Shown in pieces: positions 1,556 through 49,399 of a stretch of DNA of 64,000 nucleotides (position 1 is its first letter; each line of letters begins with the position of its first letter). The notes below the pieces were generated by a model, which saw only the letters and a program-made list of their open reading frames with translations, made no database searches and was not told the DNA's origin. A program made the translations under genes and the position numbers. The DNA is from Blasia pusilla (Eukaryota), in the NCBI GenBank assembly GCA_050084515.1, contig CM114271.1, positions 48,174,001-48,238,000 of the forward strand, read 5' to 3'.

Positions 1556-4500
1556 TCACTCATCATTGTTCGAGAGCTCTTGCAAAATTACTTTCCGCCT
1601 TGCCCTCCCGATTTTTGGAATCGTGTTAAGTGACGATGGTGTCACTACCAATGGTGGGTGTGGAACCGGAGCTCTCGGCTTCAGAGGAGAGTTGTACGCC
1701 CCAACTAGCCTCTCGTAATCTGCCTTTGCCTCCTTGCAAAGGTCAAATAGTTCCTGCCTTCCCTCGAGGCAGAGAATGTTCGTGCCACTCTGCCAGGCAC
1801 CTTTGATACTCGCCCCTGAAAGGCCTACTAAGTCAAACACCAAGTCACCCAGCCTTGAGCAAAGCTCGATGAGCGTTTGCATCAGGGCTCGCGACTTTTC
1901 CCTTCCTCCAAGTAGTGGCGTACCGTCTTGCATGAAAATTCCCGGGGGGAAATTGTATAAACTATCTAAGCTGTACCCATCGGAGCATGGATCCACAGGA
2001 TCCAGGATCTTAAACACCTAGAAGTTGTGCTCGGGCCGAACGAAGCAATAAACATAGGAGTGGTCCATCTGTAAAGAAGCACGTTGGAAACAATGTCAGC
2101 AACTTGGCCAATGGTCTACTCTCAGTATGGTGACATAATGTGCAACACGTCCCCAAAGAACTTCGCTTAACCCCAGAGAACTTCTTTATAATACTAACAT
2201 TGGAGCAACCGGTTGTAGTCCGACGGGTTGTTTTTGTCCATGACCAATCCGTCGGAAGGCGACGGGTTGCTCGCTTAGACCCTGTCGGACAAATTCTCAT
2301 CCCACAAGCGCAACCCCGAGGGCAAATTAGCGACCAAGAGATCCACCGCCACCTCTTTGACCACCCCATGGACCGTCCAGGGAGCGTGCCCGTTTCGTTG
2401 AAGCTTCTATCCCAACGTTGTCAATTTCTCAATGGCGGGTGTCGACGCTTGGGAATTGAAACTTTTCAGCTCATCCACTAGATTCGTGAAGTGAAGGATG
2501 ACGCTTGTCCGGGTCGTTGTTTCTCTATGTCTTCCCAAGGATGATGGACTGTATTCCACATCCTAGTGTGCTCCTTGGGACAACCCTGGCGCCTCTCGCT
2601 TCCACTTCTCCTCAGTCTGCGGTCTGCTTGTTGGGGTCTCTATGACCTCAGACTCTTGTGGGGTTTTTCTCGCGGAGGAACTGGTCCGACCCTCTCTCCC
2701 CGCTCGCTCGGACGATTTCGACTCTGGCCTTGAATCTTCAGCCTCTCTTTGGGAAGACTCGGCCTCGGAATTCTTCGATCCCCTCGCCTTGCCTTTGAGA
2801 CCCGCTGTAGATTTTTCTTTGGTTTTGTGGACCTTGGACGCCAACTCCGCTGTCTCGAGGGCTTGCTCTTCCGCATCTCCTTCGAAAAAGTCTTCATGCT
2901 GCACAAAATTGGGGATGCCGTCCCTACCTGCGGCCACCGCATCATAAAGCAGGCGTAGATCTTTCTCCGTTATGTCCTCAGGGTCGTTGAAGTCCATCCA
3001 AATCGGGCAATTCTCCACCTCCCAATTGGACATGCTATGAGCCATCTCCGTGAATGTCTCTCCATCAGGCGGAGAAGCCCATAATTTGCAGGCTGCCGGT
3101 ATTTTTTGCCAGGTACCTGCATTCTTACAATGGACGAGGTACCTGAACACCATGCGTTGGGCAGCTCTTTAGTCGAACTGCATTGGCCGCTTGCTCCTGA
3201 AGATCTCGCTTCTTCTTTGCAAAATCCCTTTTCTTCCCCTCAATTTCTTCGTCAAGGTCTGCCTGAGGGAGGATGCAATCCTTGAACATCATCCTGAAAC
3301 CTGGGTTTTTGATGGGCTTGTCCCGGATGTCATCGAGCCAAAGTTTGAAATCATCAGCACTCTCTAGGTTTGCTTCCTCCACAAGTGGCTCTATTCTTTT
3401 CAGCTCTGCTTGGAGACCGTCGAGCATGGACTTCCCGATAAGCCGCAACGCATCCCAGAATAACCATTTGCGGAGCCAATGGGAGATCAGTCGATCAGAG
3501 ACACCCAGAGGATGGTGTGCCGCCCTCTTTTGGGCCTCTGTGCCCTCGAGACTAATTTTCATCAATCGTATTCTCGTAAATTTTCTTATTCCAGGCAAGG
3601 CAAATCGATGCACGCGATCGAGAGACACTTTCTCCCCAATCCGACCTTGTGGATATTCATCCCTTTTTCCGTTGGCGCTTGATTATCGCCTTCAGCTCCT
3701 TGTAGAAATCAGGACCAAGTTCGGGGTTGAGAATGGCAATGTAGCGCTGCATCTTGCTTGCCGTGTACTTCATAGCTGCAGATACTGCACCTTGGATGAA
3801 TTTTGCACGCTCAGACACAGACACTTTCTGCCTCCGCTCCAGCTCCAATGCAACACTCTTCTTGGCGGCCTGTATCTTCGACCAGCAAAGGATTGTCACG
3901 GCTGCATCTTGGGTAATAAATTTATTTGCCCTAGTCTTCTTTTTTATTTGTGCACCCTTTGCCAACATCTCATTTACAAGGGCGTCGCCCAAGAACCCCT
4001 TGTACTGTGTCGGGTGCGTCGTTAGCACTTTCTTCACCCGATCGCAATCCTGGATCCAGTGGTGGGTGACATTTCCCTCCGATACAATCCTGCACATCCA
4101 AACTCAATCTAAGAAATTTTGTAAGGTACATGGGTTCCTGCAACCCGTCGGACTCCGACAGGTCGTTACAGCTCAAGGTCGGATTGTAGCAACTAGCTAA
4201 ATTTTGCAACCCATCGAAGTCCAACGGATTGCATTCAGATTTGTGATTGCCTGGTTTCAACCCGTCGGACTCCGACGGGTTGTTAGATAGTCGGTATCAA
4301 AAGTGAAGATATCAACCCGTCGGAGTCTGACAAGTTGCGCAATGTCAATGAAAACTGCAATTTGACGCCAAAAATGTAGCTCCCAACTTTCAAATGCAAC
4401 CTGTCGGACCCCGTCGAGTTGCTTTCGGCCAAAAACCTCCAAAAATAGCTTCAAGTCAAGCAACCCGTCGGACTCTGACGAGTTTCTTTCTTCAAAAAAC

Positions 4501-14268: not shown

Positions 14269-17200
14269 GGGGCTGGTATTCTGGCATGAGAGAGGACGAG
14301 AGGAGAGGAAGAGAGGAGAGTCTCTCTTAAAAAAAAAAAGGGCAGAATCCGCCTCCTCTCTTCAAAACTTTTTGAAAATTTTGAAAATTTTGTTTGCTTT
14401 CAAATTCATGAAATATTTAAAAGAGAGTAGCAAATGAACCACATTCAGGCCTAATGTAACTTTCTTTTTCCAGGCTTGCAAGAACAAGTAGACATCATAA
14501 GACCACTACAAACATCCTTCCATCACTCTCCATGTGAGCCCAATTTTCTTTACATTGCCTGTCTAAGCCAACTCTATAGTAAGCCGGGCTGAGGGGTATT
14601 AATATCGGCGGACCATCGGTAGATAATTTGACCCAAAGTAGCAATTTCATCTCAATGAAAGGTTCAAATAAAGACTCTAACTATGGTCTTAATAGACTCC
14701 TCTGCCCTTCAAGGTTTAACTTCTCTAAAGATGTGGTGGATATTATGGATTGTTGACTCTTCTTGCATTAAATATCCTATCCGATCAATACTCATCCATG
14801 AGGGTTTTACACAACAGAACAAATCACTCATCACTAATGGTAGCCAAAGACTTTCATGATAGCATTGGATGATGTTGGCTCATGAATGGGTGCATAAAGT
14901 ATACCATGGAGTGCTATGCGTTTGACAACTTGGTTTCACCATTCTCTCAACCACTGAGAAATGTATGCATCAAGAAGAAAATATGTTGAGATTGAGAGGA
15001 CAATGGAACCAAAAGGTTGATAGCTGTCAGGAGTAAAGAGGAACTGATGCACCTATGTCCCTTCATTCAGACCCTAAATGTCGGAATCTGACAGGTTGCA
15101 ACTCTTGCAACCCGTCGAAATCCAATGGGTTGCACCCCCTTTCAAGCAAGCACACCACAACAAAAGAAGGATCTTGAGAAGTGATTCCATTCCACCCTGC
15201 AATCCATGAGAATCCGACTGGTTGGGAATCTAACATGAGAATCCGACAAGTAGTAGGAATCCAACACGTCTCTGAAATACCGTGTTAGAGAAGAATGGTG
15301 TGACGATAATGGGGGAACAAGGCAAAAGTGAAGAAGCCTGCCAAAATGCCTGAAAAGTTGGACTAACAAGAAAAGAGTGGGATCACTCAAGCAGCCAACA
15401 TGTCGGAATCCGACAATTTTCCTGCAAGAGGTTTAAAATATTGTGACAAGTTGCAACGCGTCCGAATCCGACGGGTTACAAAATAAACAACCTCGAGTAG
15501 ATAGACCAACACAATCGATAAGAACAAAAACAATTCAGCATAAGTTTACAAAAACCATCCTGGTTCAAAAACTTTATGTCCTTTATTACATCCAAGGGAA
15601 GCTCGGAAATGTACATTTGATCTAGTCTATGATTTCTTCAACCTCGTCATCTACAAATTTACTCGTAACTCTCCTAGGTTCCTATACAAAAGGAATGTCT
15701 TGGGATACAAGTGGCTCCTCTGGCCGATTGTAGACGAGGATCAAAAATATTGGGGAATTCAAGAGCCATGGCCCCGCCCTAGGTACACCATAACGGTCCC
15801 ATGTAACATGATTTGAGTCCCAACACCTTCCTCGGCAGTAAATCTTGTATGCTCTGCAAGGTGACACCCATCTTGTATCAATATGTGCTCCGTCCATGGA
15901 AAGCACTAAATCCCAACTCCAAAACACTTCAATCAAGCTGGGTCCAATACATCTTTGAACTCACTCGTCATCGTCCGATAGCTCTTCCAAAATTACTCTC
16001 AACTTTTCCCTCCCGATTTTCGGAATAGTAGGAAGTGACGATGATGTCACTATTAATGCTGGTTATGGAACCGGAGCTATTGGCTTTGGAGGAGAGTTGT
16101 ATACTCCCACTAGCCTCTCGTAATCCACCTTTGCCTCTTTCCAAAGGTCAAAAAGTTCCGGCCTTCCCTCAAGGCAGAGAAAGTTCCTGCGACTGTGCCA
16201 GGCACCTCTGATACTCGCCCTTGATAGGCCCACTAAGTCAAAGACCAAGTCATCCGGCCTCGAACAGAACTCGATGAGCGTTTGCATCAAGGCAGGTGAC
16301 TTTTCCCTTCCTCCAAGTAAGGGGTTCGTGTCTTGCATGTAAATTCCCGGGGGGGGAGGAGGGGGAATTGTAGAGACTATCTAAGTTGTACCCATCGGAG
16401 CATGGATCCACTGGATCCGGGATCTGGAACACCTGGAAGTTGTGCTCGGGCCTTACAAAGCAGTAGAAAAATGATCGGTCCATCTATAAACAAGTAGGTA
16501 AAAAATAATGTCTGCAAAAAGAAAAAGCTAGTAGACCGCTGGTCTACTCTCCATAAACTGACATAATGTGCAAACCGTCGGGATCCGACGGGTTGCTTTT
16601 CAACCCGTCATACTAGTCCATACTAATTACCAACTCGTCCAAACTTGGCCTATAGGCCTGACGAAACAATGACCTGTCAGAGTCCGACGGGTTGTCTTAC
16701 AACTCTAAGACCCCTTTTTGGCCATGAGCAACCCGTCGGAAGCCGACAGGTTGCTCATCTTGCTGGACAAAACCTCCACCGTTTCGAGTGCGATGGTTGG
16801 CTTACAACTGAATACAATTGTTCACAGTTGATAAGTTCCTAATATAAGAGCAACCCATCACTTTTAGACAAGTTGCATCAATCCAGAAACATGGGGAAAA
16901 GCAGTGCTACTTGCAACCCGTCGGATTCCGACGGGTTGCAGTCAATGGAGACTTGTTGGTGAGTTTGCAACCGGTCGCTTTCAGACGGATTGCAACACCG
17001 CAGACACAAGCTATTGGGATCCGATGGGTTGCATGCTCAGATACAACCCGTCGAAGCCTGACGGGTTGATTTTCTGTTAAACTAAATTTTTTTAATAAGA
17101 GGACTTACCCGGACTTGACTCGTCGCCGATCGGAGTGGATACTCATTTTTAATTACCCATGATTGTGTCATCCTCCACTTCAGCAACCTCTTTACGCACT

Positions 17201-20200
17201 GAAGGTTGAAGAGCTTATCTTCGCTCCCTCTAGTGAGAACCAAGAAACAACCCATATCACTCAGATACGCGTCGGCAAAAGAAAACAACAACGCGATCTG
17301 GTCGTACGAAAGCGGGACATTCCAGTTTGGGATAGTGTCAGATGGATTTTTGTCCCACAAGAAAAACCCAGAAGGCAAATCCGCAATGAGGAGGTCCACC
17401 GCCACCTCCTCAACCACCCCATGCACCGTCCAGGGGGCGTGCCCATTTCGAAGGAGTTTTCATCACAGCACGGTCAATTTGTCGATGGCAGGTGTCGACT
17501 CCTAAGAACTGAAACTCTGCAGCTCATCGACAAGATGAGTCAAGTGAACAAGGACACTTGTCCTGATGGTTTTTTCCCTATGGCTGCCCAAGGATGATGG
17601 AGTGTATATCACATCCTTATCTCCTCCCTCGGACGAACAAGATGCCTCCCGCTTCCGCTTCTCCCGAGTCTGCTGTCGGCTTGTGGGAGTCTCTATTACC
17701 TCAAACTCCACAAGAGTTTTCTTGGACGAGGACCTGGTTAGGCCCTCTCGCCCCGCTTGCCCGGACGATTCTACCTCTCACCTTGAGGACTTAGCCTCTT
17801 TTCTAGAAGACTCTGCCTCAGATTTCCTCGATCCCTTCGCCTTCCTCTTTGGTGGTGACGACCTTGCCCACCAACTCCGCTGTCTCAAGGGCTTGCTCCT
17901 CCGCATCTCCTTCGAAAAAATTGTCACGTTGCACAAAGTTTGGAATGTCATCCCTACCTGCAACCACAGCATCATACACCTCCCAGTCGGACATGCCCTG
18001 TCCCATCTTCATGTCGTACATGAAGAATGCCTCTCCATCAGGCGCAGAAGCCCAAAATTTGCAGGTTGCCGGTAATTTTTGCCAGGTACCTGCATTCTTA
18101 CAATTGATGAGGTACCTATACACCATCCGCTCAGCAGCTCTTTGTCGAGATGACTTGGCCGCCTGGTCCTCAAGGTCCCGCTTCTTCTTTGCAAAATCTT
18201 GTTTTTTGGCATCTATTTCTTCATGCAGGTGTGCCTAAGGGAGGATGTGATTCTTGAACATCGTCCTGAATCCGGGGTTTTTCGTGGGCACTATTTTGAA
18301 CTATGTCATCAAGTCATAGTTCAAAATCTTCTGCAACCTCTAGGTTTGCTTCTTCTGGAATTGGCTCAATCTTCTTCAGCTCCGCTTGAAGATCCACGAG
18401 CATGGACTTCCCCAGAAGGCGTAACGCGTCCCAGAATGACCATTCCCGTACCCAATGGGAGATCACTGGATCTGAAACTCCCGAAGGACGGTGTGCCGCC
18501 CGCTTTTGGTCCTTAGTGCCCTCGAGACTGATTTTCATCAGTCAGATTCGCCTAAACTCGGATATCCCAGACAGTGCAAATTTGTGCATGTGTTCTAGAG
18601 ACACTTTCTCGCCGATCCGACCCTGTGGATCTTCGTCTCTCTTCCGCTGGCGCTTGATTATTGCCTTGAGCTCTTTGTAAAACTCTGGACCAAGTTCGGG
18701 GTTGAGAATTGCAATGTAACGCTCCATCTTGCTTGTAGTGTACTTTGTAGCTACAGATACAGAAACATGAATAAACTTTGCACATTTCGACGCTGACACG
18801 TTCTCTCTTCGCTCCAATTCCAACGAAGCACTCTTCTTGGCGGCTGGATCTTGGACCAACATAGGATTGTGACGGCTGCATCTTGGGAAATGAAGGTATT
18901 TGCCCAAGTCTTATTTTTTATTTGAGCTCCCTTTGCCAGCATCTCATTTACCAGACCGTCGCCAAGGAATCCCTTGTACTCTGCCCGGTGCGTCGTAAGC
19001 ACCTTCTTCGCCCTGTTGCAATCCTGGATCCAATGGTGGGTGACGTTCCCCTCCGATACAATCCTGCACATCCAAACATAAGGTAAGAATACTACAACCT
19101 ATCGGGTTCTTGCAACCCGTCGAATTCCGCCAGGTCGTAATTGTGTCAACCCATGGGGGTCGTAATGGTAGCATAGAGATAAATGTTGCAATCCGTCGGA
19201 GTCCGACGGGTTGCAACATGTATCTTTGTGTTACACTTATTGCAACACTCTTGAAATTTTTAGAGAGAATTGCAACCCATCAAAGTCCGAAAGGTCGCAC
19301 TCTCTTTTCGTGACTTTCTGGTCCAACCGATTTAGTCATTGGTTACAACTCGTCGGACTCCGATGGGTTGTAGAATGACTTCAATTCGGAGACAGGTTTC
19401 CGGAAAAAAACTGCACATATCCACCCGTTGGAGTCCGACAGGTTGCGCAATGCCTTGTAAAGCTGGAATTGGACGCCTAAAAGCAAGCTCTCGTACTCTG
19501 ACCACCTACTCTAGGGGGGGAAATGCAACTCGTCGGAGTCCGACGAGTTGCTTTTAGGCGTCCGATGATTTGTTACCTCTCGTTGTGCAACCCGTCGGAG
19601 TCCGACCGATTGCAGAACAAATAAATCATGCATTTATTTTTCCACTCGCTGATGTTCGACTGGCTTCAGTATCCCGGATTAATTTGGTATGCTTGGCCAC
19701 CAAGCAACTCGTCGGACTCAGACGGTTTGCTTTACTATGAAATTGACCACAAAGAGGATAGTGGCAAGAGACTCAAATCATTCTTGACCATCTTTAAGCT
19801 TTCCAATTATTCAACATGTATGACTCCGACAGGTTGAAGCAATCAAACTTAAGGAAGAGGAAACTGATGTATTCATCGCATGCATTGCCATTTCCACCAT
19901 TGCCATGTGATGAAGAAATGGATGGAGCACCACTGCCTTCACGTAAAAAATGCGCCTCCAATGAATTTGGGCGCTCCTCTGCTGTCGCGCCCCTACTCTC
20001 CTTGAACGCCAATCTCTAGTGTTGCGGAAGCGTACGTTCAGTAGGACACGGTCTCATCGCCGATCTGCACCCAAACACGCATTCTCGTTAGTCGGGTCCG
20101 TGCCAACCAGCGTTCCAACCCACCGAGTTCTCAACTTGGCGTCTCATCAAGCTCAACCTTCCTTAATTCCTAGTTTCCAAAACATGGCAAGTCCTTCAAG

Positions 20201-22621: not shown

Positions 22622-24242
22622 GAGGTGCGGTAAGAGGAGAGGAAGAGAGGAAGAGAGGAGAGAGGAAACTACCTTCAACAGAAATAAATACTTTTTTTTA
22701 AAGAGAGTTTTTGTTGGGTTGAAGAGAGGAAACTTTTTGTGTGATTTTTTTTGCACTTTTTTGCTCAATTATTAAGCAGTCCCACAGTTTTTTTTTCCTC
22801 TTCCATATTTTGGCAACCCCTCTGAGTCCGACGAGTTGCAAATTGCACAAAATTTAGAAAACTGAAAAATCAATGGAATCATAAGTGTGGAACCAATCAC
22901 TTTTTCCATCCAAGGTCTGGAAAAAATCTATCATTTGCCCTAGGTTGAAAAGAGTTCAAGCTCAAAGTGAAGGTTCTGGAAAAATGAAAGTACAATCTAA
23001 AACCTCATTTTGCATCCTCAAAGTGGTTTGTTTAAAATACTTTGCACTTTTGTGAGGGACAGAATTGGTTGGTGGATTCCTACTCCTACCTCCGACTCTC
23101 TTAAAACTACCAGCAACACATAGTACATGTGCTTACAAGGGAAATACCTTTTGCCACTTGTCTCTCTTTGGACAAAGTCATCACATGAACATGTGGGAAA
23201 GCAACAGATATGCACCACATACACCCCTGTGACACTTGAATTTACAGTGTTGTTCCTGACCCAATAAATCCTTCCTATTCCATTGCCACTTAAGACATCT
23301 TTCGTGGCGATGATCTCCATTTTTTCCTCCCGAGCTGATGCAATTCGCTTGCTCTCTCCACCGTTGGCCTACACATTCTATTTCTCTTCACCCCATTTCT
23401 AGATTCAAACAGAAATAGTGGATTGAGATCATCCACCTTCTCCGGGTACATGTTGACATCAATCTTGGGTTGAATATGAAATGCGAAGGTCTCGATAATG
23501 CGAACATGCTCCGAACTTCCCCCGTCTACGAGTCTGAAACCGGCACTTGTAAGATTGTCCACTTCGTCTTGAGTGCAACTCGTACCTACGGCGATGGGCC
23601 AAATTGTGGGGGTATTCCCCGGAGCTCCAATGGCAGCCAAGTAAGACTTCCGGAAAGCCCAAGATTCATTTGGGCATAAGAACTACTTCAATTGATCCCC
23701 GGTCCTCGTGAAACGATCAAAGGTTTTGAGTCCCCAAAACCTTGGCAGTGGTCGTCCAGTCCTTGTAGAGTTCTTATTTAGGAAAGTGCCGAATGCTCTC
23801 CTTATGCCATCAGATCCTGCCCTGCAAGTGGGTCCACGTCCTGGGTTGCTCCGAGATATATGCCAACGTTTTAGGTTGCAATCCACCTCCATTACCGGAA
23901 TCCCATATTGTTGAACCACCCCACCAACCGGATGTTGCGAACTTCCAGCAACGGAGGGCTTTTGAAATAAAACATTCACCGATTTTTGGATAAGTTACTC
24001 CATCACGAATTTGGGAGCGGTCAAGGGTCCCCGAATACCTGGGCGGCGTAATTTCCTCATCCCAATCAATCACCGGATTCGTTCCTCGATGTTGCCTCTT
24101 CACCTGCGTGAATTCAAGATACTTATCTGGTCTCCACGAGTCTTGCTCGGACTGCTTTACCACCATCTATATGGGACGTCTTGAAACGCGCCCACGAATA
24201 TCCCCACCAATGTGTACGTCTTGCTTGAGGGGAGTTCCTGCG
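22622..24242 (-). mobile_element. Copy C right arm (reverse): right terminus and transposase 3' part with SWIM finger
   Basis: GAGGTGCGGTAAGAGGAGAGG at 22622; ORF 23018-23320 CSCDDF...PCKHMYYV. Confidence 0.85.
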
Positions 24243-26067
24243 GGGGCAGGTATTCTGACAGGAGAGAGTAAGAGAGGAGAGGAAGAGAGGAAGAGAGGAG
24301 AGTCTCTCTTAAAAAAAAAGGCCAAATCTGCCTCCTCTCTTCAAAACTTTTTGACATATTTGAAATTTTTGTTTGCTTTAAAATTCAGGAAATCTTTAGA
24401 AGAGAGTATTTAGTGGTCCACATTTGGCCCTAAAAAAACCTCCTCTTTCCTGGGGGCGAGAAAAAAGGAGACATCATAAGACCACCCAAAACATTTTTCC
24501 ATCACTCTCCATGTGAGCCTAAGTTTCTTAACATTCCCTGTCTCGGTCAACAAAAAGCAGTGCCCTTGGTATTTTTGTTGGAGGAGCACCCGGATGGGTA
24601 CCTCTCTTTTTGCAAGGATTGTTTCCTGCATCATGGCCTCCCCTAAATTGCCCCATAACCAACTTTCTGTCGGTTATGAATGGTGTCTGCTCAAGACCAA
24701 CTTTCTGAAATGTGAACAAATCAGATCCTAAGGCTAAGAAACCGAGAAGCTGCACCCCTCCCAACCCGTAAGAAAGCTCACCATAAGAAAGGAAAGATTT
24801 TTAGAAGTGATTTTCTTCCACCCTGCACCCACGACGATCTAACGGGTTGGGAATCCGAAATGGCAATCCGACAGGTAGTAGGAATCCTGCACATCTTCGA
24901 CAAGAAAAGAAGCCTACAACTGGTTGGACGAATGAAGGGGAACGAGCCAGAAGTCAAGAAGCCCGCCACAATGCGTCAGAAGTTGGTCTCACCGAGATAG
25001 AGCCCGATCACTCAAGCAGTCAACCTGTTGGAATCCGACAACTTGCCTAGAAATGGTTAAAAAGTTGCAGTGGGCAAAAAGCAAAAAGTTGCAACTCGTC
25101 GGAATCATACTGGTTGCACAATTGTAATTCTGAGTAGCTAAAAGAACACAATCCACAAGTCCAAAAACATATTCCAGAAAACTTTTACAAACACCATTAT
25201 GGGTTGAAAAAATCTCGTCCTTTATTACCTCCGAAGGAACCTCGGAAATGTACATTTCACCTAGTCTATGATTTCTTCAGCCTCGTCATCTACAAATTTA
25301 CTCCTAACTCTCCTCGGTGACAGTACCAAAGGAATGTCCTGGGATTCAAGTGGCTCCTCTGGCCGATTGTAGACGGGGATCGAAAATGTTGGCGAATCCG
25401 AGAGCCTTGGACCCCCCCCTAGGTACACCATAACGGTCCCATGTCTCAGGTCCCACCGCCTTCCTCGACAGTATACCTTGTACGCTCTGCAATGTGACAC
25501 CCATCCAGTATCAATATCTGCTCCGTCCTCGGTAATACCATTATGGCAACCACACTGGTAGAAGGAATCCAACACGTCTGAGAGAAGAAAAGAAGCCTAC
25601 GCCTGCCTTTACGAGTTGAGGGGAAGGTGCCAAGGGAAGAAGCCCGCCAGACTGCCTCTTAAGTTGGACCAACATGGAAAGGGTCCGATCAGGCAACCTG
25701 TCGAGAATCAGACAAGTTGCCTGGAGGTGGTAAAAAGGGTGCAGTGGTCAAAAAGCGAAAAGTTTCAAGGAGGAGAAATCCGACGGGTTGCAGTGGTCAT
25801 AAAGTGAAAGTTGCAAGCAGGAGAAATCCGACGGGTTGCAAAATAGAAGTCCGTGGAGTACATAGACGATCACATTCGAAAAGACAAAAAATGATCAGCA
25901 AACATTTACAAGCACCACCATCGATCGAAAAAATCTTCTGCTTTATATCATCCGAAAAAAGCTCGGAACTGTACATTTGATCTATTCTATGAAATCTTTT
26001 GCCTCATTATCAAAAAACTCCCTACTCCAAACGCTGCAGTCAAGCTGGGTCGTTGAGTTCTTTGAAC

Positions 26068-28937
26068 TCACTCGTCATCGTCCGAGAGCTCTTGCAAAAT
26101 CACTTTTGGCCTTGCCCTCCCGATTTTGGGAATCGTTGGAAGTGACGATGGAGTCACTACCAAGGGTGGCTCTGGAACCGGAGCTCTCGGCTTCGGTGGA
26201 GAGTTGTACGCCCCAACCAGCCTTTCGTATTCTGCCTTTGCCTCCTTGCAAAGGTCAAACAGTTCCTGCCTTCCCTCGAGGAAGAGAATGTTCCTGCCAC
26301 TCTGCCAGACGCCTTTGATACTTGCCCCTAAAAGTCCCACTAAGTCGAACACCAAGTCACCCGGCCTTGAGCAGAGCTTGATGAGCGTTTGCATCAGGGC
26401 TAGCGACTTTTCCCTTCCTCCCAGAAGTGGGGTACTGTCTTGCATGTAAATTCCCGGGGGGGAATTATACAAACTATCTAAGCTATACCCATCTGAGCAT
26501 GGATCCACAGGATCCTGGATCTTGAACACCTGGAAATTGTGCTCGGGCCGAACGAAGACGTAGGAGTGGTCCATCTGTAAATCAACACGTTGGAAACAAT
26601 GTGAGAAACTAAAGAAGTCGCCTTGAGAACATTTTCAATAATTGACTTTGGATCAACCTGTCCGAGTCCGACGGGTTGTTTTGTCCCGGACCAGCCCGTC
26701 GCCTTCTGACGGGTTGGTCAGGGAGAAAACAACCCGTCAGGCTCCGTTGTTTTTGTCCGTGAGCAACCTGTCGGAAGGCGACGGGTTGCTGGCCTAGAGC
26801 AGCCCATGCTTGCCTGAGAGCAATCCGTCGCTATCAGACGGGTTGCATCCAAAAACCAAAATCAACTGGGAAAACCCAAAAGAAACTGCAACCCGTCGAT
26901 TTCCGACGGGTTGCAGGTACACCGCGGTTTTCCCTGTATGTGGGAAAGATGCAACCCGTCGGAAATCGACGGGTTGCTCTTAGCCGAGCATGGGCTCTAA
27001 GCCAGCAACCCGTCGCCTTCCGACGGGTTGCTCACGGACAAAAACAACCCAGATTGACTCTCATTATACACATCATTAAAATATAATTGAAATTATAGTA
27101 CAGGAATTGAGCCTTACCCGAATCTGACTCGTTGCGGATCGGAGTGGGTACTCGTTTTTGATGATCCACGATTGTGCCGTCCTCCACTTTAGCGACCTCT
27201 TGACGCACTGGAGGTTGAAGAGCTTTTCCTCACTCCCTCCAGTCAACACCAAGAAGCAGCCCTTGTCACTCAGATAGGCATCTGCAAAGGAGAACAAAAG
27301 TGCAATCTGGTCATAAGTGAGCGGCACATTCCACTCAGGTACCTCGTCCGATGGATTCTCGCCCCAAAGTCGCAACCCCGAGGGCAGATCGGCGATCAAG
27401 AGATCCACCGCAACCTCTTGGACCACTCCATTCACCGTCCGGGCAGCGTGCCCGTTTCGTTGGAGCTTCCGTCCCAGCGTTGTCAATTTTTCGATGGTTG
27501 GTGTTGACGCTTGAGAACTGAAGCTCTTCAGCTCATCCAGTAAAGGAGTGAACTGAAGGAGGACGCTTGTCCGGGTTGTTGTTTGTTTGTGTCTTCCCAA
27601 GGATGATGGGCTGTATTCTCCTTGGGACAACCCAGGCACCTCTCGCTTCCGCTTCTCCCTGGCCTGGGGACGGCTTGTCGGGGTTTCTATGACCTCAGAT
27701 TCTGGTGGAGTTTTTTTCGCCGAGGATCTGGTTCGACCCTCTCTCCCCGCTCGTCCGGACGATTCCGCCTCTGGCCTTGAATCTTCAGCCTCTCTTTGGG
27801 AAGACTCGGCCTCTGAATTTTTCCCTCCCCTCGCCTTGCCTTTGAGACCCGCTGTGGATTTGTCTTTGGATGTGCGGACCTTGGAAGCTAACTCAACTGT
27901 CTCGTGGGCCTGCTCTTCTGCATCTCCTCCGAAGAAGTCTTCAGGCTGGACGAAATTGGGGATGTCGTCTTGTCCTGAGGCCACTGCATCATGAAGTAGG
28001 TACCTCGTCTAGTGTAATGCTGTCGAACAGAATCAGCCGTCTGCTCCTGTAGATCTCGCTTCTTCTTCGCTTGATCCCGTTTGTTCCCCTCTACTTCTTC
28101 ATCAAGCTCTGCCTGAGGGAGGACGCAAACCTTGAACATGGTCTTGAATCCTGGGTTTTTGGTTGGCTTGTCCTGGATGTCGTCGAGCCAAACCTCGAAA
28201 TCTCCAAACTTTCAAGGTTTGCTTCCGGCGGAATGGGCTCTAATCTTCTGAGCTCCGCTTGCAGACCGTCCAGCACGGACTTCCCAATTACCCGCAACGC
28301 GTCCCAGAACGACAATTCGCGTAGCCAATGCGAGATCACTGGATCGGACACACCCGGAGGATGGTGTGCCGCCCTCTTCTGGGCCTCTGAGCCCTCGTGA
28401 CTGATTTTCATCAGTCGTATCCTCCTAAACTTGCTTATCCCGGACAACGCAAACCGATGCACGCTATCCACCGACACTTTCTCCCCAATCCGACCATGCG
28501 GATCTTCATCCCTCTTCCGCTGGCGCTTGATAATCACCTTCAGCTCCTTGTAGAACTGCGGACCAAGTTCGGGATTGAGAATGTTGATGTATCGCTGCAT
28601 CTTGCTCGCCGTGTATTTCGTTGCAGCAGATACTGCAGCTTGGATGAATTTGGCGCGCTCAAACGCAGATACCTTCTCCCTCCGCTCCAGCTCCAATGCA
28701 TCGCTTTTCTTTGCGGCATGTATCTTCGACCAGCAAAGGATGGTTACGGCTGCATCTTGAGAAATAAACTTGTTTGCCCAAGTTTTCTTCTTAATCTGAG
28801 CACCCTTTGCAAGCATCTGATTGACAAGGGCATCGCCCAAGAACCCCTTGTACTCTCCCGGGTGCGTTGTAAGCACCTTCCTCACCCGATCGCAGTCCTG
28901 GATCCAGTGGTGGGTGACATTCCCCTCCGATACAATC
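26068..28937 (-). pseudogene. Exons 3-4 of the ParB-MTase gene; best-preserved methyltransferase domain
   Basis: VDLLIADLPSG...LLFSFADAYLSDKGCFLVL...SWIIKN...SQIR | intron 27117-26575 (phase 0) | MDHSYVFVRP...GGREKSLALMQTLIKLCSRPGDLVFDLVGLLGASIKGVWQSGRNILFLE. Confidence 0.82.
26746..27050. repeat. ~300-bp fold-back built from nested palindromes in intron 3
   Basis: TTGTTTTTGTCCGTGAGCAAC... at the left arm and ...GTTGCTCACGGACAAAAACAA at the right arm; central CAACCCGTCG/CGACGGGTTG palindrome at ~26890-26913. Confidence 0.8.
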
Positions 28938-30799
28938 CTGCACATCCAAACTCAACCCGTCAGGAAATTACATGGGTTCCTGCAACCCGTCGGACTCCGA
29001 CGGGTCGTCACAGCTGAAGGTCGGATTCTAGCAACGAGCTAAATGATGCAACCCGTTGGAGTCCAACAGATTGCATTCAGATTTGCTAATGCCTAGTAAG
29101 CAAACATCCTTCCTATTCCATTGCCACTCAAGACATCTTTCGTGGCGATGATCTCCATTTTTGCCTCCCGAGCTGATGCAATTCGCTTTGCTCTCTCCAC
29201 CGTTGGCCTACACATTCTGTTTCTCTTCACTCCATTTCTAGACTCAAACAGAAATAGTGGATTGAGATCATCCACCTTCTCCGGGTGCATGTTGACATCA
29301 ATCTTGGGTTGAATACGAAATGCAAAGGACTCTGTAATGCGAACATGCTCCAAACTTCCCCCGTCTACGAGTCTAAAACCGGAACTTGTAAGATTGTCCA
29401 CTTCGTCTTGAGTGCAGTTCGTACCTACGGCGATGGGCCAAATCGTGGGGGTATTCCCCGGAGCTCCAATGGCAGCCGGATAAGACTTCCGGAAAGTGCA
29501 AGATTCATTTGGGCAGAGGAAGTACTTCAATTGATCCCCGGTTCTCGTGAAATGATGAAAGGTTTTGAGTCCCCAAAACCCAGGCAGTGGTTTAGGGTCC
29601 TTGTATAGTTCTTATTTAGGAAAGTGCCGCAAGCTCTCCTAATGCCATCAGATCCTGCCCTACAGGTGGGTCCAGCACCCAGGAAACACCTATTGCAACT
29701 CGTCCGATTCTGACGGATTGCAAGAACCTTTGGCCACTCCGGGCTGGAAGATCCAAGTGCAAGTCATCCGAAACCCATCCGGGTCGAACTATTTACAGGC
29801 CTTGTATACATGCCACTTGCATACTTGCATATGGGTTGCACCAAAATTCTGGATGCAACCCGTCGGATTCCGACGACTTGCACACTCGGGCAACCCGTCG
29901 CATCCAACAGCTTGCTTGGTTTCTTCGGTTTGAAATCCCTATAGTTCCCACGCTTCTCAACTTGAGCTGCAACTTAACAAACAATTCTCAGCGTGAGCTT
30001 GACAAGACAAAATTGTGAACTCACCTGCCGCATGAAGTTTCCCCATTGTCTCATACGTAGAGTCCACCAACTAATCCAAGAGCACAACTCTTTGTACTTC
30101 CCCTCAATCGCATGCTTCCTCCACCACACATGAAGTTCTTCTTGGCATTGCATGGCCTGTTTCAAGGTTATGCTGTCCTTGCAGCGTTGGAGTAGAGTGA
30201 AATGCTCTGTCCTCTTATTCTCCTTGATGCAAGATTTGGTGTACCGGGTCATAGATTGTTGCCAATGGAAAGCATCCGACCTTTCCCTCTCCGGTTGAAC
30301 CTCTCCACCCCAGAACACTTCGCAAATAGCAATCCACCCAGATTGTGCATTGTCCACCATGAACCCATAAATTTCCGGAGGTGGCCTTTTATTTTCCTTC
30401 ACCACCTCCAATAAGAGTAACCAACACATCTTCAAACTTCCAACGTCTTCTGCTTTTACTTCACAGACAAATATAGTTTTGAGTCCCTTCTCCACATGGT
30501 CATAAACGTGAGCACCCATCGTCAACCATCCGTTCAGCACTCTGTAGCAAATATCAAAGCTTACCTAGCTGCCGTAAAGATCTTCCCCTTCCCTCATGCG
30601 ATCTATAAGATCGAGGCCACTCGACGGACCTGTGGTTGACATTTTGAAGACATAGGCCCTGGATCCCTCGCCTCCTTGGCCCATGAACTTCCATCTCTGA
30701 ATGAATGGAAATCTGGAGTTGGCCTTGATTGTGGTAATGGCATCCATTTTGGCCGTCTTTCCATCCATAACCCGTATTTGACGCAGAAAATTCCTCAGT

Positions 30800-33700
30800 G
30801 GATCTGTCGGACACTGGGTCCTCTGTCCGCCTACTCGTTCCTCTTGCGAGTATCAGGCAATAGTTTGCTTTCGTCTCTGCCCTTGAAAATGTTCAAGCAC
30901 ATTCTTGTCGACAAGTTGCCACCCACGTACGATGGTAATTGCATTTTTGAGTTGCCTCCACTTGCTGTTCCTGCTCAAAAGAAGGATGGAGGATGCCTGA
31001 AGGGTATGGACAAAAAGTCTGATTGTCATCGATGGTGCAGGCTTCAACGGACCAGTGCTTCAATTCCAGATGGTCCTTGGATTGTCTCCCGCCGCCAATG
31101 CGTGGGAGCCTTGGAGTGTAGAAGTCCAGCATGCCTGTATCTAGAGCGCAACGGGCGAGTCAATACGTCGCAATTCCCTCCCAAGCATGCAAAAACTCCA
31201 TACGAGGTCGGTGCCACCATACTGCCAGGAGGCCATCGATGTCCTCATTGTCAGGCATCGCCCTTCTGCGTTGGAGCGTGTCCTGCATACATATTTTTCA
31301 TTGTCCACAACTTGGGCTCCACGTCAGAGTATACAAGGCTGGCTGTCCATGTTGGCTCCCACACTCATCCTGTGACCGATGCAATTCAAAGACACATCAA
31401 GGAGGATGTGGCGAAGAAAGTAGCCGAGGTCTATAGAAACTCTCCGGGTTCAAAGCCCGAAATGATCAAGCTCACAACGGCATCACAAATTTGTGAACAA
31501 TTGCTTGGAATCCCTGGACAGGGCGAGATCACGGCGGTTGAGGAGAAACAACTCTGGGAAAATCTCGCATTTCTGGCTGATCCTGAATGCTTCCGGAATT
31601 TGCTACGTCAGATACAAGTTCTGGATGGAAAGACGGCCGAAATGGATGCCATCGCCAAAATCAAGGCCAACTCCAGATTTCCATTCATTCAGAGATGGCA
31701 GTTCATGGGCCAAGGAGGCGAGGGATCTAGGGCCTATGTCTTCAAAATGTCAACCACAGGTCCGTCGAGTGGCCTCGATCTTATAGATCGCATGAGGGAA
31801 GGGGAAGATCTTTACAGGAGCTGGGTAAGCTTTGATATTTGCTACAGAGTGCTGAACGGATGGTTGACGATGGGTGCTCACGTTTATGACCATGTGGAGA
31901 AGGGACTCAAAAATATATTTGTCTGTGAAGTAAAGGCAGAAGACGTTGGAAGTTTGAAGATGTGCTGGTTACTCTTATTGGAGGTGGTGAAGGAAAATAA
32001 AAGGCCACCTCCGGAAATTTATGGGTTCATGGCGGACAATGCACAACCTGGGTGGATTGCTATCTGGGAAGTGTTCTGGGGTGGAGAGGTTCAACCGGAG
32101 AGGGAAAGGTCGGATGCTTTCCATTGGCAACAATCTGTGACCCGGTACACCAAATCTTGCATCAAGGAGAATAAGAGGACAGAGCATGTCACTCTACTCC
32201 AACGCTGCAAGGACAGCAAAACCTTGAAGCAGGCCATGGAATACCAGGAAGAACTTCATGGGTGGTGGAGGAAGCATGCGATTGAGGGGAAGTACAAAGA
32301 GTTGTGCTCTTGGTTGAGTTGGTGGACTGTACATATGAGACAATGGGGAAACTTCATGCGGCAGGTGAGTTCACAATTTTGTCTTGTCAAGCTCACGTTG
32401 ACAATTGTTTGTAAAGTTGTAGCTCAGGGTGAGAAGCGTGGGAACTATATGGATTTCAAACCCAAGAAACCAAGCAAGTTGTCGGATGCGACGGATTGCC
32501 CGAGGGTGCAACCCGACGGAAACCGACGGGTTGCATCCAGATTTTTGGTGCAACCCAAGTGTGCAACCCGAGTGTGCAACCCGTCGGGACCCGACGGGTC
32601 ACAGAGTCATTCATGGGATGCCTCGGCCTTGCAACCCGTCGGGTTCGGCGGGTTGCGTGGAAAGGGGGTTTAAGGTTACAACACCGGGACCTGGACGGGT
32701 CGCAGAGTCGCGTTCATGGGATGCCTCGGGCCTGGCAACCCGCCTGGTTTTGTGGTCACTTATTTCTTTGACTCTGAGTTATTTTCGTTCCCTTCTAACA
32801 TTGCCGTCGTTGCAGGGATTGAACGTTCATGAAAATGCCCTCTGCCCCAACACAAGTGGAGCAGAAAGTGTTCATTCCTCCTGGACGTCGTCACAAGCAT
32901 GCCAATGAATTTCACTTGTGGAGGCATGCCAACAAGACCAAGCAAGAGCAATGCTACAGTCTGCATCATCCCATATCTTCCTCACAAAAGGCATAACAAA
33001 AGGAAAGGGGCCGTCAATCTACGAGCTCTATGTCAGGGCGGCTGTGAGATGTGGTGATGAAAAAATGTATGTGGAAGCCTTCAACCGGTGCGTAGTTGGA
33101 ACTCCACTCGAGCAAGACGTACACATTGGTGGGGATATTCATGGGCGGGTTTCAAGACGTCCCATACAGATGGTGGTAGAGCAGTCCGAGCGAGACTCGT
33201 GGAGACCGGATAAGTATCTTGACTTCAGGCAGGTGAAGAGGTAGCATCGAGGAACGACTCCGGTGATTGATTTGGATGAGGAAATTACACCGCCCAGGTA
33301 TTCGGGGCCCCGGACCCGTCCTAAATCTGTGATGGAGTTACTTCTCCAAAATCAGTGAATGTTTTATTTCAAAAGCCCTCCGTTGCTGGAAGTTCGCAAC
33401 ATCCTGTCACTGGGGTGGTTCAACAATATGGGATTCGGTAATGGAGGTGGATTGCAACCTAAAACGGTGGCATATATCTTAGAGCAACCCAGGGCGTGGA
33501 CCCCTGCAGGCGGATCTCGATGGCATTAGGAGAGCATGCGGCACTTTCCTAAATAAGAACTGTACAAGGACTGGACGACCACTGCCTGGGTTTTGGGGAC
33601 TCAAAACTTTTGATTGTTTCACGAGGACCGGGGATCAATTGAAGTACTTCTTTTGCCCAAATGAATGTTGCGCTTTCCGGAAGTCTTATCCGGCTGCCAT

Positions 33701-34312
33701 TGGAGCTCCCGGGAATACCCCCACGATTTGGCCCATCGCCGTAGGTACGAACTGCACTCAAGACGAAGTGGACAATCTTACAAGTGCCGGTTTCAGACTC
33801 GTAGATGGGGGAAGTTCGGAGCATGTTCACATTACAGAGACCTTCGCATTTCGTATTCAACCCAAGATTGATGTCAACATGTACCCGGAGAAGGTGGATG
33901 ATCTCAATCCATTATTTCTGTTTGAGTCTAGAAATGGGTTGAAGAGAAACAGAATGTGCAGGCCAACGGTGGAGAGAGCAAAGCGAATTGCAGCAGCTCG
34001 GAAGGCAAAAATGGAGATCATCGCCACGAAAGATGTCTTAAGTGGCAATGGAATAGGAAGGATGTATTGGGTCAAGAACAACACTGTAAATTCAAGTGTC
34101 ACAAGGGTGTATGTGGTGCACATCTGTTGCTTTCCCACATGTTCATGTGATGATTTTGTCCAAAGAGAGACAAGTGGCAAAAGGTATTTCCCTTGTAAGC
34201 ACATGTACTATGTGTTGCTGGTAGTTTTAAGAGAGTCGGAGGTAGGAGTAGGAATCCACCAACCAATTCTGTCCCTCAAAGAAGTTTGAAGTATTTTAAA
34301 CAAACCACTTTG
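30800..34312 (+). pseudogene. MULE transposase (longest open segment; DD and E motifs, SWIM)
   Basis: ORF 30676-32673 carries Zn finger, SFDICY, FMADNA, DAFHW; donor after GNFMRQ (GTGAGT ~32364), acceptor TTGCAG ~32815; TSGAESVHSSW; SWIM in 33639-34289; stops in exon 2. Confidence 0.88.
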
Positions 34313-34706
34313 AGGATGCAAAGGAGGTTTTAGATTGTACTTTTATTTTTTTCTCAACCTTCACTTCGAGCTTGAACTCTATTCTTAGGGCAAATGACAT
34401 GATTATTTCGAGACCTTGGATGGAAAAAGTGATTGGTTCCACACTTATGATTCCATTGATTTTTTAGTTTTCTAAATTTTGTGCAATTTGCAACTCGTCG
34501 GACTCAAAGGGGTTGCCAAAATATGGAAGAGGAAAAAAAAACTGTGGGATTGCTTAATATATGAACAAAAAAGTGCAAAAAATTTCAAATTTTTTTTTCC
34601 TCTCTTCAACCCAACAGAAACTCTCTTCAAAAAAGAGTATCTATTTTGGTTGACCCTAGTTTCCTCTCTCCTCTCTTCCTCTCTTCCTCTCCTCTTACCG
34701 CACCTC

Positions 34707-36868
34707 TTTACAGATGGACCACTCCTATGTTTACTACTTCGTTCGGCCCGAGCAAAACTTCCAGGTGTTTAAGATCCTAGATCCTGGATCCTATGGATCC
34801 ATGCTCCAATGTGTACAGCTTAGATAGTTTATACAATTTCCCCCCCGGGAATTTTCATGCAAGACGTTACCCCACTACTTGGAGGAAGGGAAAAGTCGCC
34901 AGCCCTGATGCAAACGCTCAACGAGCTCTACTCAAGGCCGGGTGACTTGCTGTTTGACTTAGTGGGCCTTTCAGGGGCGAGTATGAGAGGCGCCTGGCAG
35001 AGTGGCAGGAACATTCTCTGCCTTGAGGGAAGGCAGCAACTGTTTGACCTTTGCAAGGAGGCAAAGGCAAATTAAGACAGGCTAGTTGGGGCGTACAACT
35101 CTCCTCCAAAGCCAAGAGATCCAGTTCCAGACCCACCATTGGTAGTGACACCATCGTCACTTCCCACAATTTTGAAAATCGGGAGGGCAAGGTCGACAGT
35201 AATTTTGCAAGAGCTCTCAGACGATGACGAGTGAGTTCAAAGAACTCGAGGACCCAGCCTGACTGCAGCGTTTGGAGTAGGGATTTATTTGATGAGGAGG
35301 GCAAAAGAATTCATAGAATAGATGAAATGTACAGTTCCGAGCTTCTTTCGGATGTAATAAAGGACAAGATTTTTTCGAACGATGGTGGTGTTTCTAAAAG
35401 TTTGTTGAATATCTTTTATGTCTTTTTGAATGTGATTGTCTATGTACTCTGAGGACTTCTATTTTGCAACCCGTTGGATTTCCATGGCTTGACCACTGCA
35501 CCTTTTTAACCACTTCCAGGCAACCTGTCGGATTCCGACAGGTTGGCTGCGTGAGTGATCGGACTCTTTCCCTGTTGGTCCAACTTAAGATGCATTATGG
35601 CGGGCTTCTTCACTTTGGCACCTTTCCCTAGTATCGTCAAACAAGGGGTAGGCTTCTTCTCATCTCTCAGTCGTGTTGGATTCCTACTACCTGTGGGATT
35701 GCCATCATGGTATTTCCAAGGACGAAGCACATATTGATACTGGATGGATGTCACATTGCAGAGCGTACAAGATATACTGCCGAGGAAGGCGGTGGGACTC
35801 AAATCAGGTTACATGGGACCGTTATGGTATACCTAGGGGGGCAAGGCTCTCGAATTTGCCAACATTTTCGATCCCCGTCTACAATCGGCCAGAGGAGCCA
35901 CTTGTATCCCAGGACATTCCTTTTGTACAGGAAACTAGGAGAGTTAGGAGTAGATTTGTAGATGACGAGGCTGAAGAAATCATAGACTAGATCAAATGTA
36001 CATTTCCGAGGTTCCTTCGGAGGTAATAAAGGACGAGATTTTTTCAACCGATAATGGTGTTTGTAAAAGTTTACTGAAATTTTTTTTTGGACTTGTGGAT
36101 TGTGTTCGTCTAGCTACTAAGAATTTTTATTTTGCAACCCGTGTGATTCCGACAGTTTGCAACTTTTCACTTTTTAACCACTGCAACTTTCCAACCATTT
36201 CCAGGCAAGCTGTCGGATTCTGACAGGTTGGCTGCTTGAGTGGTCGGACTCTTTCCCTGGTAGACCAAAAGTGAAGGGGGCTAATTCTGAAGGGTTGCAA
36301 GAGTTGGAACCTGTAAAATTTCGACGGGTTGGGAGGGGTGCAGCATCTCGGTTGATCAGATTTAGGATCTGAATGAAGGGACATCAGTTTCTCTTTACTT
36401 TAGACAACTAACAATCTTTTGGTTTAATTATCGTCTCCTGTGTTCACATTTCACAAAGTTGGTCTTTATTTGAACCTTTCATTGAGATGAGATTGCTACT
36501 TCTGGTCACATTATTTGCCAATGGTCCTCCAAAAAAAATAGCCCTAGGCACAGCTTATTGTAGACTAAGACAGGCAATGTGAAAAAACTTAGGCTCTCAT
36601 GGAGAGTGATGGAAAAATGTTTGTAGTGGTCTTATGATGTCTACTTGTTTCTCGCCACCTGAAAAAAAGAGGTTTCTTAAGGCCCGAATGTAGACCACTA
36701 CCTACTCTCTTCTAAAAATTTCATGAATTTGAAAGCAAACAAAAATTTCAAATATGTCAAAAGTTTTGAATATAGGAGGCGGATTTGGCCCTTTTTTTTG
36801 AAGAGAGACTCTCCTCTCTTCCTCTCTTCCTCTCCTCTCTTCCTCTCTCCTGCCAGAATACCAGCCCC
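34707..36868 (+). mobile_element. Copy C left arm (reverse): MTase last exon, left-arm repeats, left terminus
   Basis: TTACAG|ATGGACCAC acceptor at ~34712; GGREKSPALMQTL...DLVGLSG in 34857-35075; ends ...CCAGAATACCAGCCCC at 36868. Confidence 0.82.
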
Positions 36869-49360: not shown

Positions 49361-49399
49361 TACCATATGAGAGGAGGGAGCCACTCTCATATAGTGTGA

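Follow-up and report, generated by a model that had tools for sequence, protein, structure and literature searches.

A probable accessory pseudo-methyltransferase of putative beta-class ancestry in a putative Mutator-like transposon of Blasia pusilla

Can a domain that resembles a DNA methyltransferase, but in which the catalytic signature is replaced, still be part of an enzyme, and why would a repeat carry it? The question is raised by the interval 26068-27420 of a 64,000-nucleotide stretch of Blasia pusilla (assembly GCA_050084515.1, contig CM114271.1, positions 48,174,001 to 48,238,000, forward strand), hereafter called the window. An initial annotation, made from the sequence alone, had read the interval as a beta-class amino-methyltransferase with non-canonical motifs, and proposed either a dead binder or an enzyme with altered chemistry. 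Our analysis suggests that the gene is probably an accessory pseudo-methyltransferase carried by a Mutator-like DNA transposon, an explanation that we prefer with moderate confidence. The interval would encode the C-terminal domain of an accessory protein in a large repeated DNA transposon with a Mutator-like SWIM-finger transposase.

The interval lies on the minus strand and consists of two exons separated by a 543-nt intron. A minus-strand open frame runs from 28008 to 27118, where it ends in ...SQIR and is followed by the donor GTAAGG; a second one begins with an ATG at 26574 and stops at 26068. The phase-0 intron between them (26575..27117, GTAAGG...TTTACAG) was recognized from its sequence, its conserved splice sites, and the RNA depth, and both donor and acceptor are conserved across the other copies in the window. 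The final part of the long exon (27118..27414) encodes the N-terminal half of the methyltransferase-like domain, with strand beta4 and an eroded motif IV, VAVDLLIADLPSG (27414..27376; DLPS at 27390..27379), which is followed by WNVPLTYDQ and then by DKGCFLVLTGG. The last exon (26068..26574) encodes a motif X-like GGREKS (26421..26404), the motif I stretch GDLVFDLVGLLGAS (26361..26320) with the eroded motif I DLVGLLG (26326-26346), and NILFLEG (26292..26272) with the motif II Glu codon at 26275-26277, and then a Pro-rich tail and the acidic end LSDDDE before the stop codon. The stretches of motifs IV, X, I and II were located by a six-frame motif search. Upstream of the domain, the same exon continues into a Ser/Glu/Lys-rich linker with basic KRKRE-type stretches (27415..28008, minus strand), and further upstream is the gene's N-terminal region (28091..28951, minus strand), identified by weak similarity to the N-terminus of a moss protein (E 0.003). 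In this copy, which we use as the reference, the N-terminal region is severed from the rest: about 197 nt are deleted and frameshifts occur at about 28000-28090, as judged against copy A and a contig from a DNA run.

The domain region occurs in six copies in the window (tblastn and motif scan), none of them intact, and the reference is the sole copy in which both domain exons are open. Copy 0 (14..547, plus strand) comprises the exon 1 part with two stop codons and breaks off within the intron. Copy A (1559..2952, minus strand) retains both exons, although it contains stop codons and has lost the end of exon 1 through an internal deletion. Both exons are also present in copy B (15964..17979, minus strand; stop codons and a frameshift) and in copy G (54415..56283, minus strand; frameshifts and deletions). 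Copy D (34699..35231, plus strand) has the last exon only and is joined straight to a transposase/SWIM part. A motif IV variant was found by six-frame search and tblastn at five sites (224-256 on the plus strand; 2314-2346, 17367-17399, 27376-27408 and 55648-55680 on the minus strand), reading VDLL(I/V)A(D/N)LP(S/*)(G/R). A motif I variant was found by six-frame search, also at five sites (34944-34982 on the plus strand; 1808-1846, 16213-16251, 26320-26358 and 54665-54703 on the minus strand), reading DL(V/L)F(D/N)LVGL(S/L)(G/R)AS. Within it, LLG is private to the reference copy, and the other four read LSG (three copies) or LSR (copy B). The canonical motif IV, (D/N/S)-P-P-(Y/F/W), is present in none of five copies, which read DLPS or, in one, NLPS. 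The canonical motif I, F-x-G-x-G, is likewise present in none of five, which read V-G-L-S/L-G. The Asp of motif IV is kept in four of the five copies and the Glu of motif II in all five.

Relatives were searched among 1.84 billion representative proteins with exon 2 as the query. There were eight matches at E <= 0.001, and two of them were accepted. P0005 is a hypothetical protein of 758 residues from the moss Ceratodon purpureus; it and its two paralogues occupy three loci, each on a different chromosome, at 89-92% identity. P0008 is an unnamed fragment of 147 residues. The remaining matches were dropped: P0001 proved to be the translation of a tandem repeat, P0006 a repeat protein with no relation to the family, and P0002-P0004 and P0007 are long proteins that match query residues 11-67 only. 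A profile search added 18 unnamed open reading frame (ORF) fragments, 15 of them at E <= 1e-14. A search by words with exon 2, aimed at longer proteins, yielded none from 2249 candidates. The two window exons are collinear with P0005 (E 4e-10 at 26% identity and E 1e-12 at 40% identity), and the linker is collinear with the linker of the same protein. In moss-lineage fragments, an intron is found at or next to the position of the window intron, after ...LPHQK, and a second intron lies within motif I. The relatives, moss proteins and unnamed fragments together, also lack canonical motifs. Motif IV is canonical in none of the 13 that cover it; 11 of these have D-x-P-(S/E/D), and the forms seen are DAPE, DAPS, DAPD, DTPS, DIPE, YAPE and DALE. 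None of the 11 relatives that cover motif I has F-x-G-x-G, and they have S-A/P-S/N-T/S-G/S instead. The motif IV Asp is kept in 12 of 13 relatives, and the motif II Glu in all eight that cover it.

To what does the domain owe these motifs? Window and moss sequences were combined in a profile, A3, which replaced an earlier alignment (A2) that had misplaced exon 1 fragments on the C-terminal half. Against PDB sequences, A3 matched the beta-class methyltransferase CcrM (6pbd) at E 2e-5, with profile positions 22-241 on chain residues 26-255, and DpnA/M1.HpyAVI at E 1.1e-5. The alignment with CcrM sets vdlliaDlPsglrl against VDLIFADPPYNLQL, REkspalm against TQKPEALL, and gdlvfDlvaltgAS against GDVILDPFFGVGTT. 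Thus DLPS is paired with DPPY, (G)REKS with (T)QKP(E), DLVGLSGAS with DPFFGVGTT, and the Glu of LFLE with the Glu of IGIE; this Glu also aligns with E216 of M1.HpyAVI. The circularly permuted order IV, X, I, II is found in one domain that is collinear with CcrM residues 26-255. When the exons were used alone, exon 2 matched DpnA/M1.HpyAVI (E 0.05), and exon 1 gave nothing relevant in the PDB. Two window copies matched PF01555 at 15.2 and 15.7 bits (E 0.015-0.021), at profile positions of about 165-220 only, and P0005, P0009, P0010 and P0008 matched the same part at 14.5-22 bits. Among the 30 nearest Atlas clusters, 22 were PF01555 clusters.

The fold was examined on a second AlphaFold model, that of P0013, a 315-residue fragment, from 28 rows of the family only, with no bona fide methyltransferases in the alignment. 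The model had a predicted local distance difference test score (pLDDT) of 50.8 and a predicted template modelling score of 0.47, with 60 residues at 70-90. When it was compared with 48,161 chains, the top eight were all beta-class N6 or N4 DNA methyltransferases (Z 8.7-10.2), and N4CMT matched at Z 8.7. Next came Type III Mod (Z 7.8-7.9) and MT-A70 proteins (Z 5.6-7.1), and unrelated chains reached at most 5.2. Foldseek gave M1.HpyAVI (E 3.9e-4) and CcrM (E 6.4e-4) as the best matches, and further M.MboIIA, M.PvuII, M.BceJIV, TTHA0409, N4CMT and M.RsrI. The domain is best read as descending from a CcrM/DpnA-like beta-class DNA amino-methyltransferase, with fold and motif order apparently kept. 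The order of IV, then X, then I that had been proposed for the beta class holds over the whole domain, and in the alignment to CcrM DLPS and DLVGLSG fall on motifs IV and I, as the initial annotation had assigned them. The model of P0013, as a representative of the family, retrieved the seven-stranded beta-class fold and, taken with the sequence alignment, removes the objection that no methyltransferase fold is present.

The erosion of the motifs is ancestral and not a product of copy decay, because the variants are in all window copies that cover the motifs and because none of the 13 and 11 relatives is canonical. The initial annotation had likewise argued that the shared variants predate decay, and this is borne out by the window copies, by the expressed paralogues at motif I (see below), and by the distant relatives; no copy or relative with canonical DPPY or F-x-G-x-G was seen. 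It had also called for the ratio of nonsynonymous to synonymous substitution rates (dN/dS) between subfamilies. Over the domain this ratio is 0.11-0.19 (six pairs, 138-251 codons), with bootstrap upper limits of at most 0.29, and a ratio of 1 was reached in none of the 999-1000 replicates per pair; the pairs are not independent, and dS may be inflated by CpG decay. Moreover, dN is about one fifth to one quarter of the intron divergence. The domain was thus kept under purifying selection while the subfamilies of the transposon diverged, and therefore the transposon seems to use the protein. The closest pairs of copies gave 0.73 and 0.78, as point estimates for which zero synonymous differences arise in resampling; these values are expected because the copies decay after insertion.

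Is the gene expressed? Raw reads from three RNA-seq runs that carry the same species label were placed on the window at a likeness of at least 90%. Each run gave 80-102 reads, with a depth of 2-13 over exon 2 and of 1-5 over exon 1. RNA depth over the intron (26628-27050) was 0 in all three runs, whereas a DNA run does cover the intron. Two RNA reads join 27118 directly to ATGGACCAC..., which is the predicted splice junction, and the first mates are on the strand expected for a minus-strand RNA. Most reads are 90-95% alike and therefore come from other, paralogous copies. In these expressed copies motif I has Ser (26330 A>G on the plus strand, in 15 of 15 reads in X6 and 11 of 12 in X5). The gene is thus transcribed and spliced from paralogous copies.

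What do the substitutions imply? In M1.HpyAVI, alanine mutants of D29 (in DPPY) and of E216 (at the end of beta2) abolish the binding of S-adenosylmethionine (AdoMet, SAM). G197 of FMGSG is crucial for AdoMet binding too, and the carboxylate contacts H168, S198 and T200 (PMC5173035). Stacking on the target base falls to the residue that ends motif IV, and the motif I Phe packs against the adenine of SAM (PMC7544214). Through the profile alignment, D29 and E216 are kept in the family, F195 is replaced by V or S, G197 by L (window) or S/N (relatives), H168 by G, and T200 by A. The stacking Tyr of motif IV is replaced by S, E or D. Compared with the canonical enzymes, the family has lost from motif IV its first proline and the aromatic residue that stacks on the base (DPPY to D-x-P-S/E/D), from motif I the Phe and the first Gly, and from motif X the HPTQKP signature. 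These losses most plausibly preceded the split of the window lineage and the moss lineage. The fold may still touch the adenosyl moiety, yet ordinary amino-methylation does not seem possible with these residues. Of the two options in the initial annotation, the mapping of residues leans toward a dead or crippled enzyme. That annotation had not remarked on the intron, the upstream break in the reference copy, the carriage by a transposase-bearing repeat or the retained Asp and Glu. The protein would no longer methylate adenine N6 or cytosine N4 and would serve as a module for binding, either by itself or paired in a dimer in the way of beta-class enzymes. Its candidate ligands are nucleic acid (perhaps the palindromic repeats of the element itself), the transposase, or a host methyltransferase, and it may have a role in transposition or in evading silencing.

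The carrier is a repeat of more than 12 kb, which also holds transposase frames. The window is eukaryotic-looking DNA and consists mostly of decayed and rearranged copies of this one large repeat. The transposase of the repeat has a 677-codon open frame (30640..32673, plus strand) that is MULE-like (Mutator-like element) by language-model features only: its nearest Atlas clusters are MULE/SWIM families (score 0.95), and nine of the ten best matches with a family share the family or clan. A downstream exon (33483..34289, plus strand) has a sub-threshold match to a SWIM-type zinc finger (Pfam E 0.013). SWIM (PF04434) was matched in three copies at E 0.013, 0.0054 and 0.0063, with 15.5-16.7 bits against a cut-off of 19.6. 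The 3' non-coding part of the repeat (24242..26067, minus strand) extends to a terminus, ...CTGCCAGAATACCAGCCCC, that is common to four copies (24242-24269, 14269-14295, 51787-51813 and 36842-36868) with four different flanks. On the outward strand this terminus reads GGGGCTGGTATTCTGGCAGGAGAGAGG, and it lies about 1.8 kb past the stop codon.

Several observations weigh against the explanation that we prefer. With a moss-dominated profile, A4, CcrM was not listed at E <= 1, and M1.HpyAVI stayed at 7e-5. Every PF01555 score (15-22 bits) is below the gathering cut-off of 26.7. A first structure model, of P0005 from eight alignment rows, had a pLDDT of 35.8, and the mediocre model of P0013 is that of a moss-lineage fragment with two read-through introns and not of the window protein. 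If such low model confidence and sub-threshold Pfam scores are put together with an exon 1 half that alone finds nothing relevant in the PDB, the methyltransferase likeness could be taken for chance or for a generic Rossmann-like pattern in a domain that is something else. We regard this as highly improbable, since the alignment with CcrM is collinear over about 220 positions (E 2e-5; DpnA, E 1e-5), since window copies, moss proteins and a fragment independently match the same part of PF01555, and since only beta-class enzymes top the structure searches. It is a different matter that Asp in motif IV and Glu in motif II are conserved, because in M1.HpyAVI these are residues needed for AdoMet binding. 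Cofactor binding, and hence some activity, may have been retained. In addition, the D-x-P loop has been conserved although the lineages compared share only about 29% identity, and this hints at a continuing role of the loop. The domain could then be a SAM-dependent enzyme still, with an unusual D-x-P-S/E/D loop, that acts on another atom or substrate (RNA, protein or a small molecule), or weakly on DNA, and marks its own or host nucleic acid. The strong purifying selection over the whole domain, both motif regions included, would agree with this, and red-algal giant DNA transposons are reported to carry accessory genes for putative N6-adenine methylases (10.1101/2025.02.11.637652). However, no aromatic or bulky residue is left to stack on the target base; in motif I the first Gly and the Phe have given way to other residues, as has the motif X His; and the known beta-class family proteins with an eroded motif IV, METTL14 (EPPL) and MTA9 (NALW), are described as non-catalytic partners (PMC7544214). 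From these residues, a remaining enzyme seems rather unlikely to us.

The carrier and the use that it makes of the gene are also open to objection. No Pfam transposase family, including PF10551, was matched at E <= 1 by the transposase of the repeat, and the MULE label would rest on the Atlas features and the sub-threshold SWIM matches. No inverted partner of the terminus (terminal inverted repeat) or second terminus was found in the window at up to three mismatches, nor was a target-site duplication, which in Mutator-like elements is of 9-11 bp. The order of transposase and gene varies, being tandem in three copies with different junctions and head to head in two places. The RNA reads are few, mostly 90-95% alike, and only two of them show the junction. 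Since Mutator-like elements often pick up fragments of host genes (PMC6431247), since the window copies are rearranged with none intact, and since both termini of the element are not defined, the gene might have been captured passively, in the manner of a Pack-MULE, or might belong to a host family in duplicated DNA, with no role for the transposon in either case. Such a history is quite unlikely in our view: dN/dS stayed at 0.11-0.19 during the divergence of the subfamilies of the repeat, and the whole multi-exon gene, including the N-terminal region and the acidic tail, is conserved between the window and the moss, and moss-lineage fragments have an intron whose position coincides with that of the window intron or adjoins it. 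Several gene copies are present in both lineages, and the gene is transcribed and spliced. The pseudo-methyltransferase itself might have a more specific task. Beta-class amino-methyltransferases work as dimers. Because of this, and because METTL14 and MTA9 are obligatory partners with eroded motifs, the protein might by analogy be a decoy subunit, which would pair with a host enzyme of the DN4MT1 type (N4-methylcytosine) or the MT-A70 type (N6-methyladenine) and would poison it or redirect it to or away from the palindrome-rich DNA of the element. We hold this elaboration to be a long shot. If true, it would mean that Mutator-like transposons of land plants possess a novel type of device for anti-silencing or self-marking.

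How does the family compare with known systems? It is like CcrM (6pbd), M1.HpyAVI/DpnA (5hfj, 5hek) and PF01555 in its motif order and collinear sequence, and these are its best structural matches. Compared with CcrM and M1.HpyAVI, the window family keeps the motif IV Asp, the motif II Glu, the W-x-x-x-N-P-x-P hairpin region and the L-x-D-x-G strand, but it has DLPS or DAPE for DPPY, V-G-L-S-G or S-A-S/N-T-G for F-x-G-x-G, and G(G/S)REK for HPTQKP. Furthermore, the window gene is eukaryotic, bears an intron, is borne by a transposon, and is fused to an N-terminal region of about 400-450 residues. METTL14 and ciliate MTA9, which partner MT-A70 enzymes of a beta-class-like type without being catalytic, also have an eroded motif IV with the fold kept, and they are structural or substrate-binding subunits of dimers (PMC7544214). 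They differ in that they belong to another clade, are host genes, and retain a hydrophobic last residue in EPPL and NALW. N4CMT of a bdelloid rotifer (8s9n/8s9o) and Marchantia DN4MT1 are, like the window gene, eukaryotic genes of bacterial beta-class origin. Their motifs are canonical. They are active host enzymes and not transposon cargo. DN4MT1 shows that bryophytes use beta-class enzymes (10.1101/2021.02.12.428880).

Among mobile elements, DIRS1 retrotransposons have a methyltransferase domain that was judged inactive, with catalytic and substrate-binding residues substituted (PMC4738411). That domain is of group 2 (M.EcoKI/M.TaqI-like, PCIF1-derived) and is within a retrotransposon polyprotein, whereas the window case is of the beta class and is a separate gene of a DNA transposon. 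The available text of the same survey of eukaryotic adenine methylases lists no land-plant or Mutator clade like the window family (PMC4738411). The red-algal giant transposons are of the Plavaka, Mutator and Zisupton types, and their accessory gene PAG2 encodes a putative N6-adenine methylase with SET; they also have tandem inverted repeats (10.1101/2025.02.11.637652). PAG2 differs from the window family in its SET domain and in travelling with ParB-2OG and other genes, a distinction drawn from its description and not from its sequence. By Pfam, no SET, ParB or 2OG domain was found in 8 + 4 proteins or in the 59 of 110 listed open frames with at least 110 codons. Mutator-like elements carry diverse accessory proteins, and MURB of maize MuDR binds the N-terminus of the transposase. 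MURB and VANC of Arabidopsis VANDAL resemble the window gene as the second gene of a MULE, for integration or anti-silencing; the likeness is by role alone, with no sequence relation claimed, and neither is described as methyltransferase-like in the available part of the source (PMC12973397). In a literature search, with supplementary tables outside its scope, the window family was undescribed for Mutator-like elements or bryophyte DNA transposons, and the red-algal preprint was the only related work. Thus transposon cargo derived from a nucleic-acid methyltransferase is a known kind, and what is new here is that it is of the beta class, anciently eroded, selected, and expressed.

To our knowledge, accessory genes of DNA transposons are few, and most of them are of unknown function. 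The window gene has a recognizable ancestry and a clear, old loss of the catalytic signature; there is evidence that it is selected and transcribed, and it has relatives in a moss lineage that can be transformed. Its ancestry, selection, and moss relatives therefore make it a tractable case for learning what transposons do with dead nucleic-acid-modifying enzymes. It also adds an example of the beta class from a DNA transposon to those of the methylase cargo in red algae and the inactive domain of DIRS1. For annotation, it is a family that slips under the Pfam thresholds and would otherwise be labelled "hypothetical".

Other features of the repeat were also observed. A 25-nt palindrome, CAACCCGTC-N7-GACGGGTTG, occurs 92 times in the window at up to three substitutions, compared with 0-1 times in shuffles. 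The palindromes cluster in introns and intergenic parts of the repeat (for example at 4141-4735, 26654-27030 and 62000-62700), some of them in a tandem array whose period is about 64 bp, and the intron of the reference copy is full of them. The element might use them as binding sites for a protein or form hairpins with them. Copies of the repeat lie nested and have recombined, and several of the junctions have CT-rich tracts. Two transposase segments (29832-30794 and 31595-32557) are inverted duplicates of each other with 95% identity and abut at 30793/30794. On the strand opposite to the transposase, in the upstream region of the repeat, there is an ORF at 20932-21429 (minus strand) with related ORFs at 5315-5806 (minus strand) and 63414-63863 (plus strand), which may be a third gene of the element. 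A ParB-type motif was suspected in the ORF at 20932-21429 (WDGNHRYMAW), and neither Pfam nor the PDB gave support for it.

Other mobile elements lie between the copies. They include a copia-type gag at 13737-14078 (plus strand, E 3.9e-11), an integrase core at 37568-38110 (plus strand, E 5.9e-11), and a reverse transcriptase of the non-LTR (long terminal repeat) type at 49343-51429 (minus strand, E 5.5e-23). An exon-like ORF at 43623-43988 (plus strand) strongly matches Mec-17/alpha-tubulin acetyltransferase (PF05301, E 1.5e-29). It lies where repeats are scarce, at 40-48 kb, and probably belongs to a host gene.

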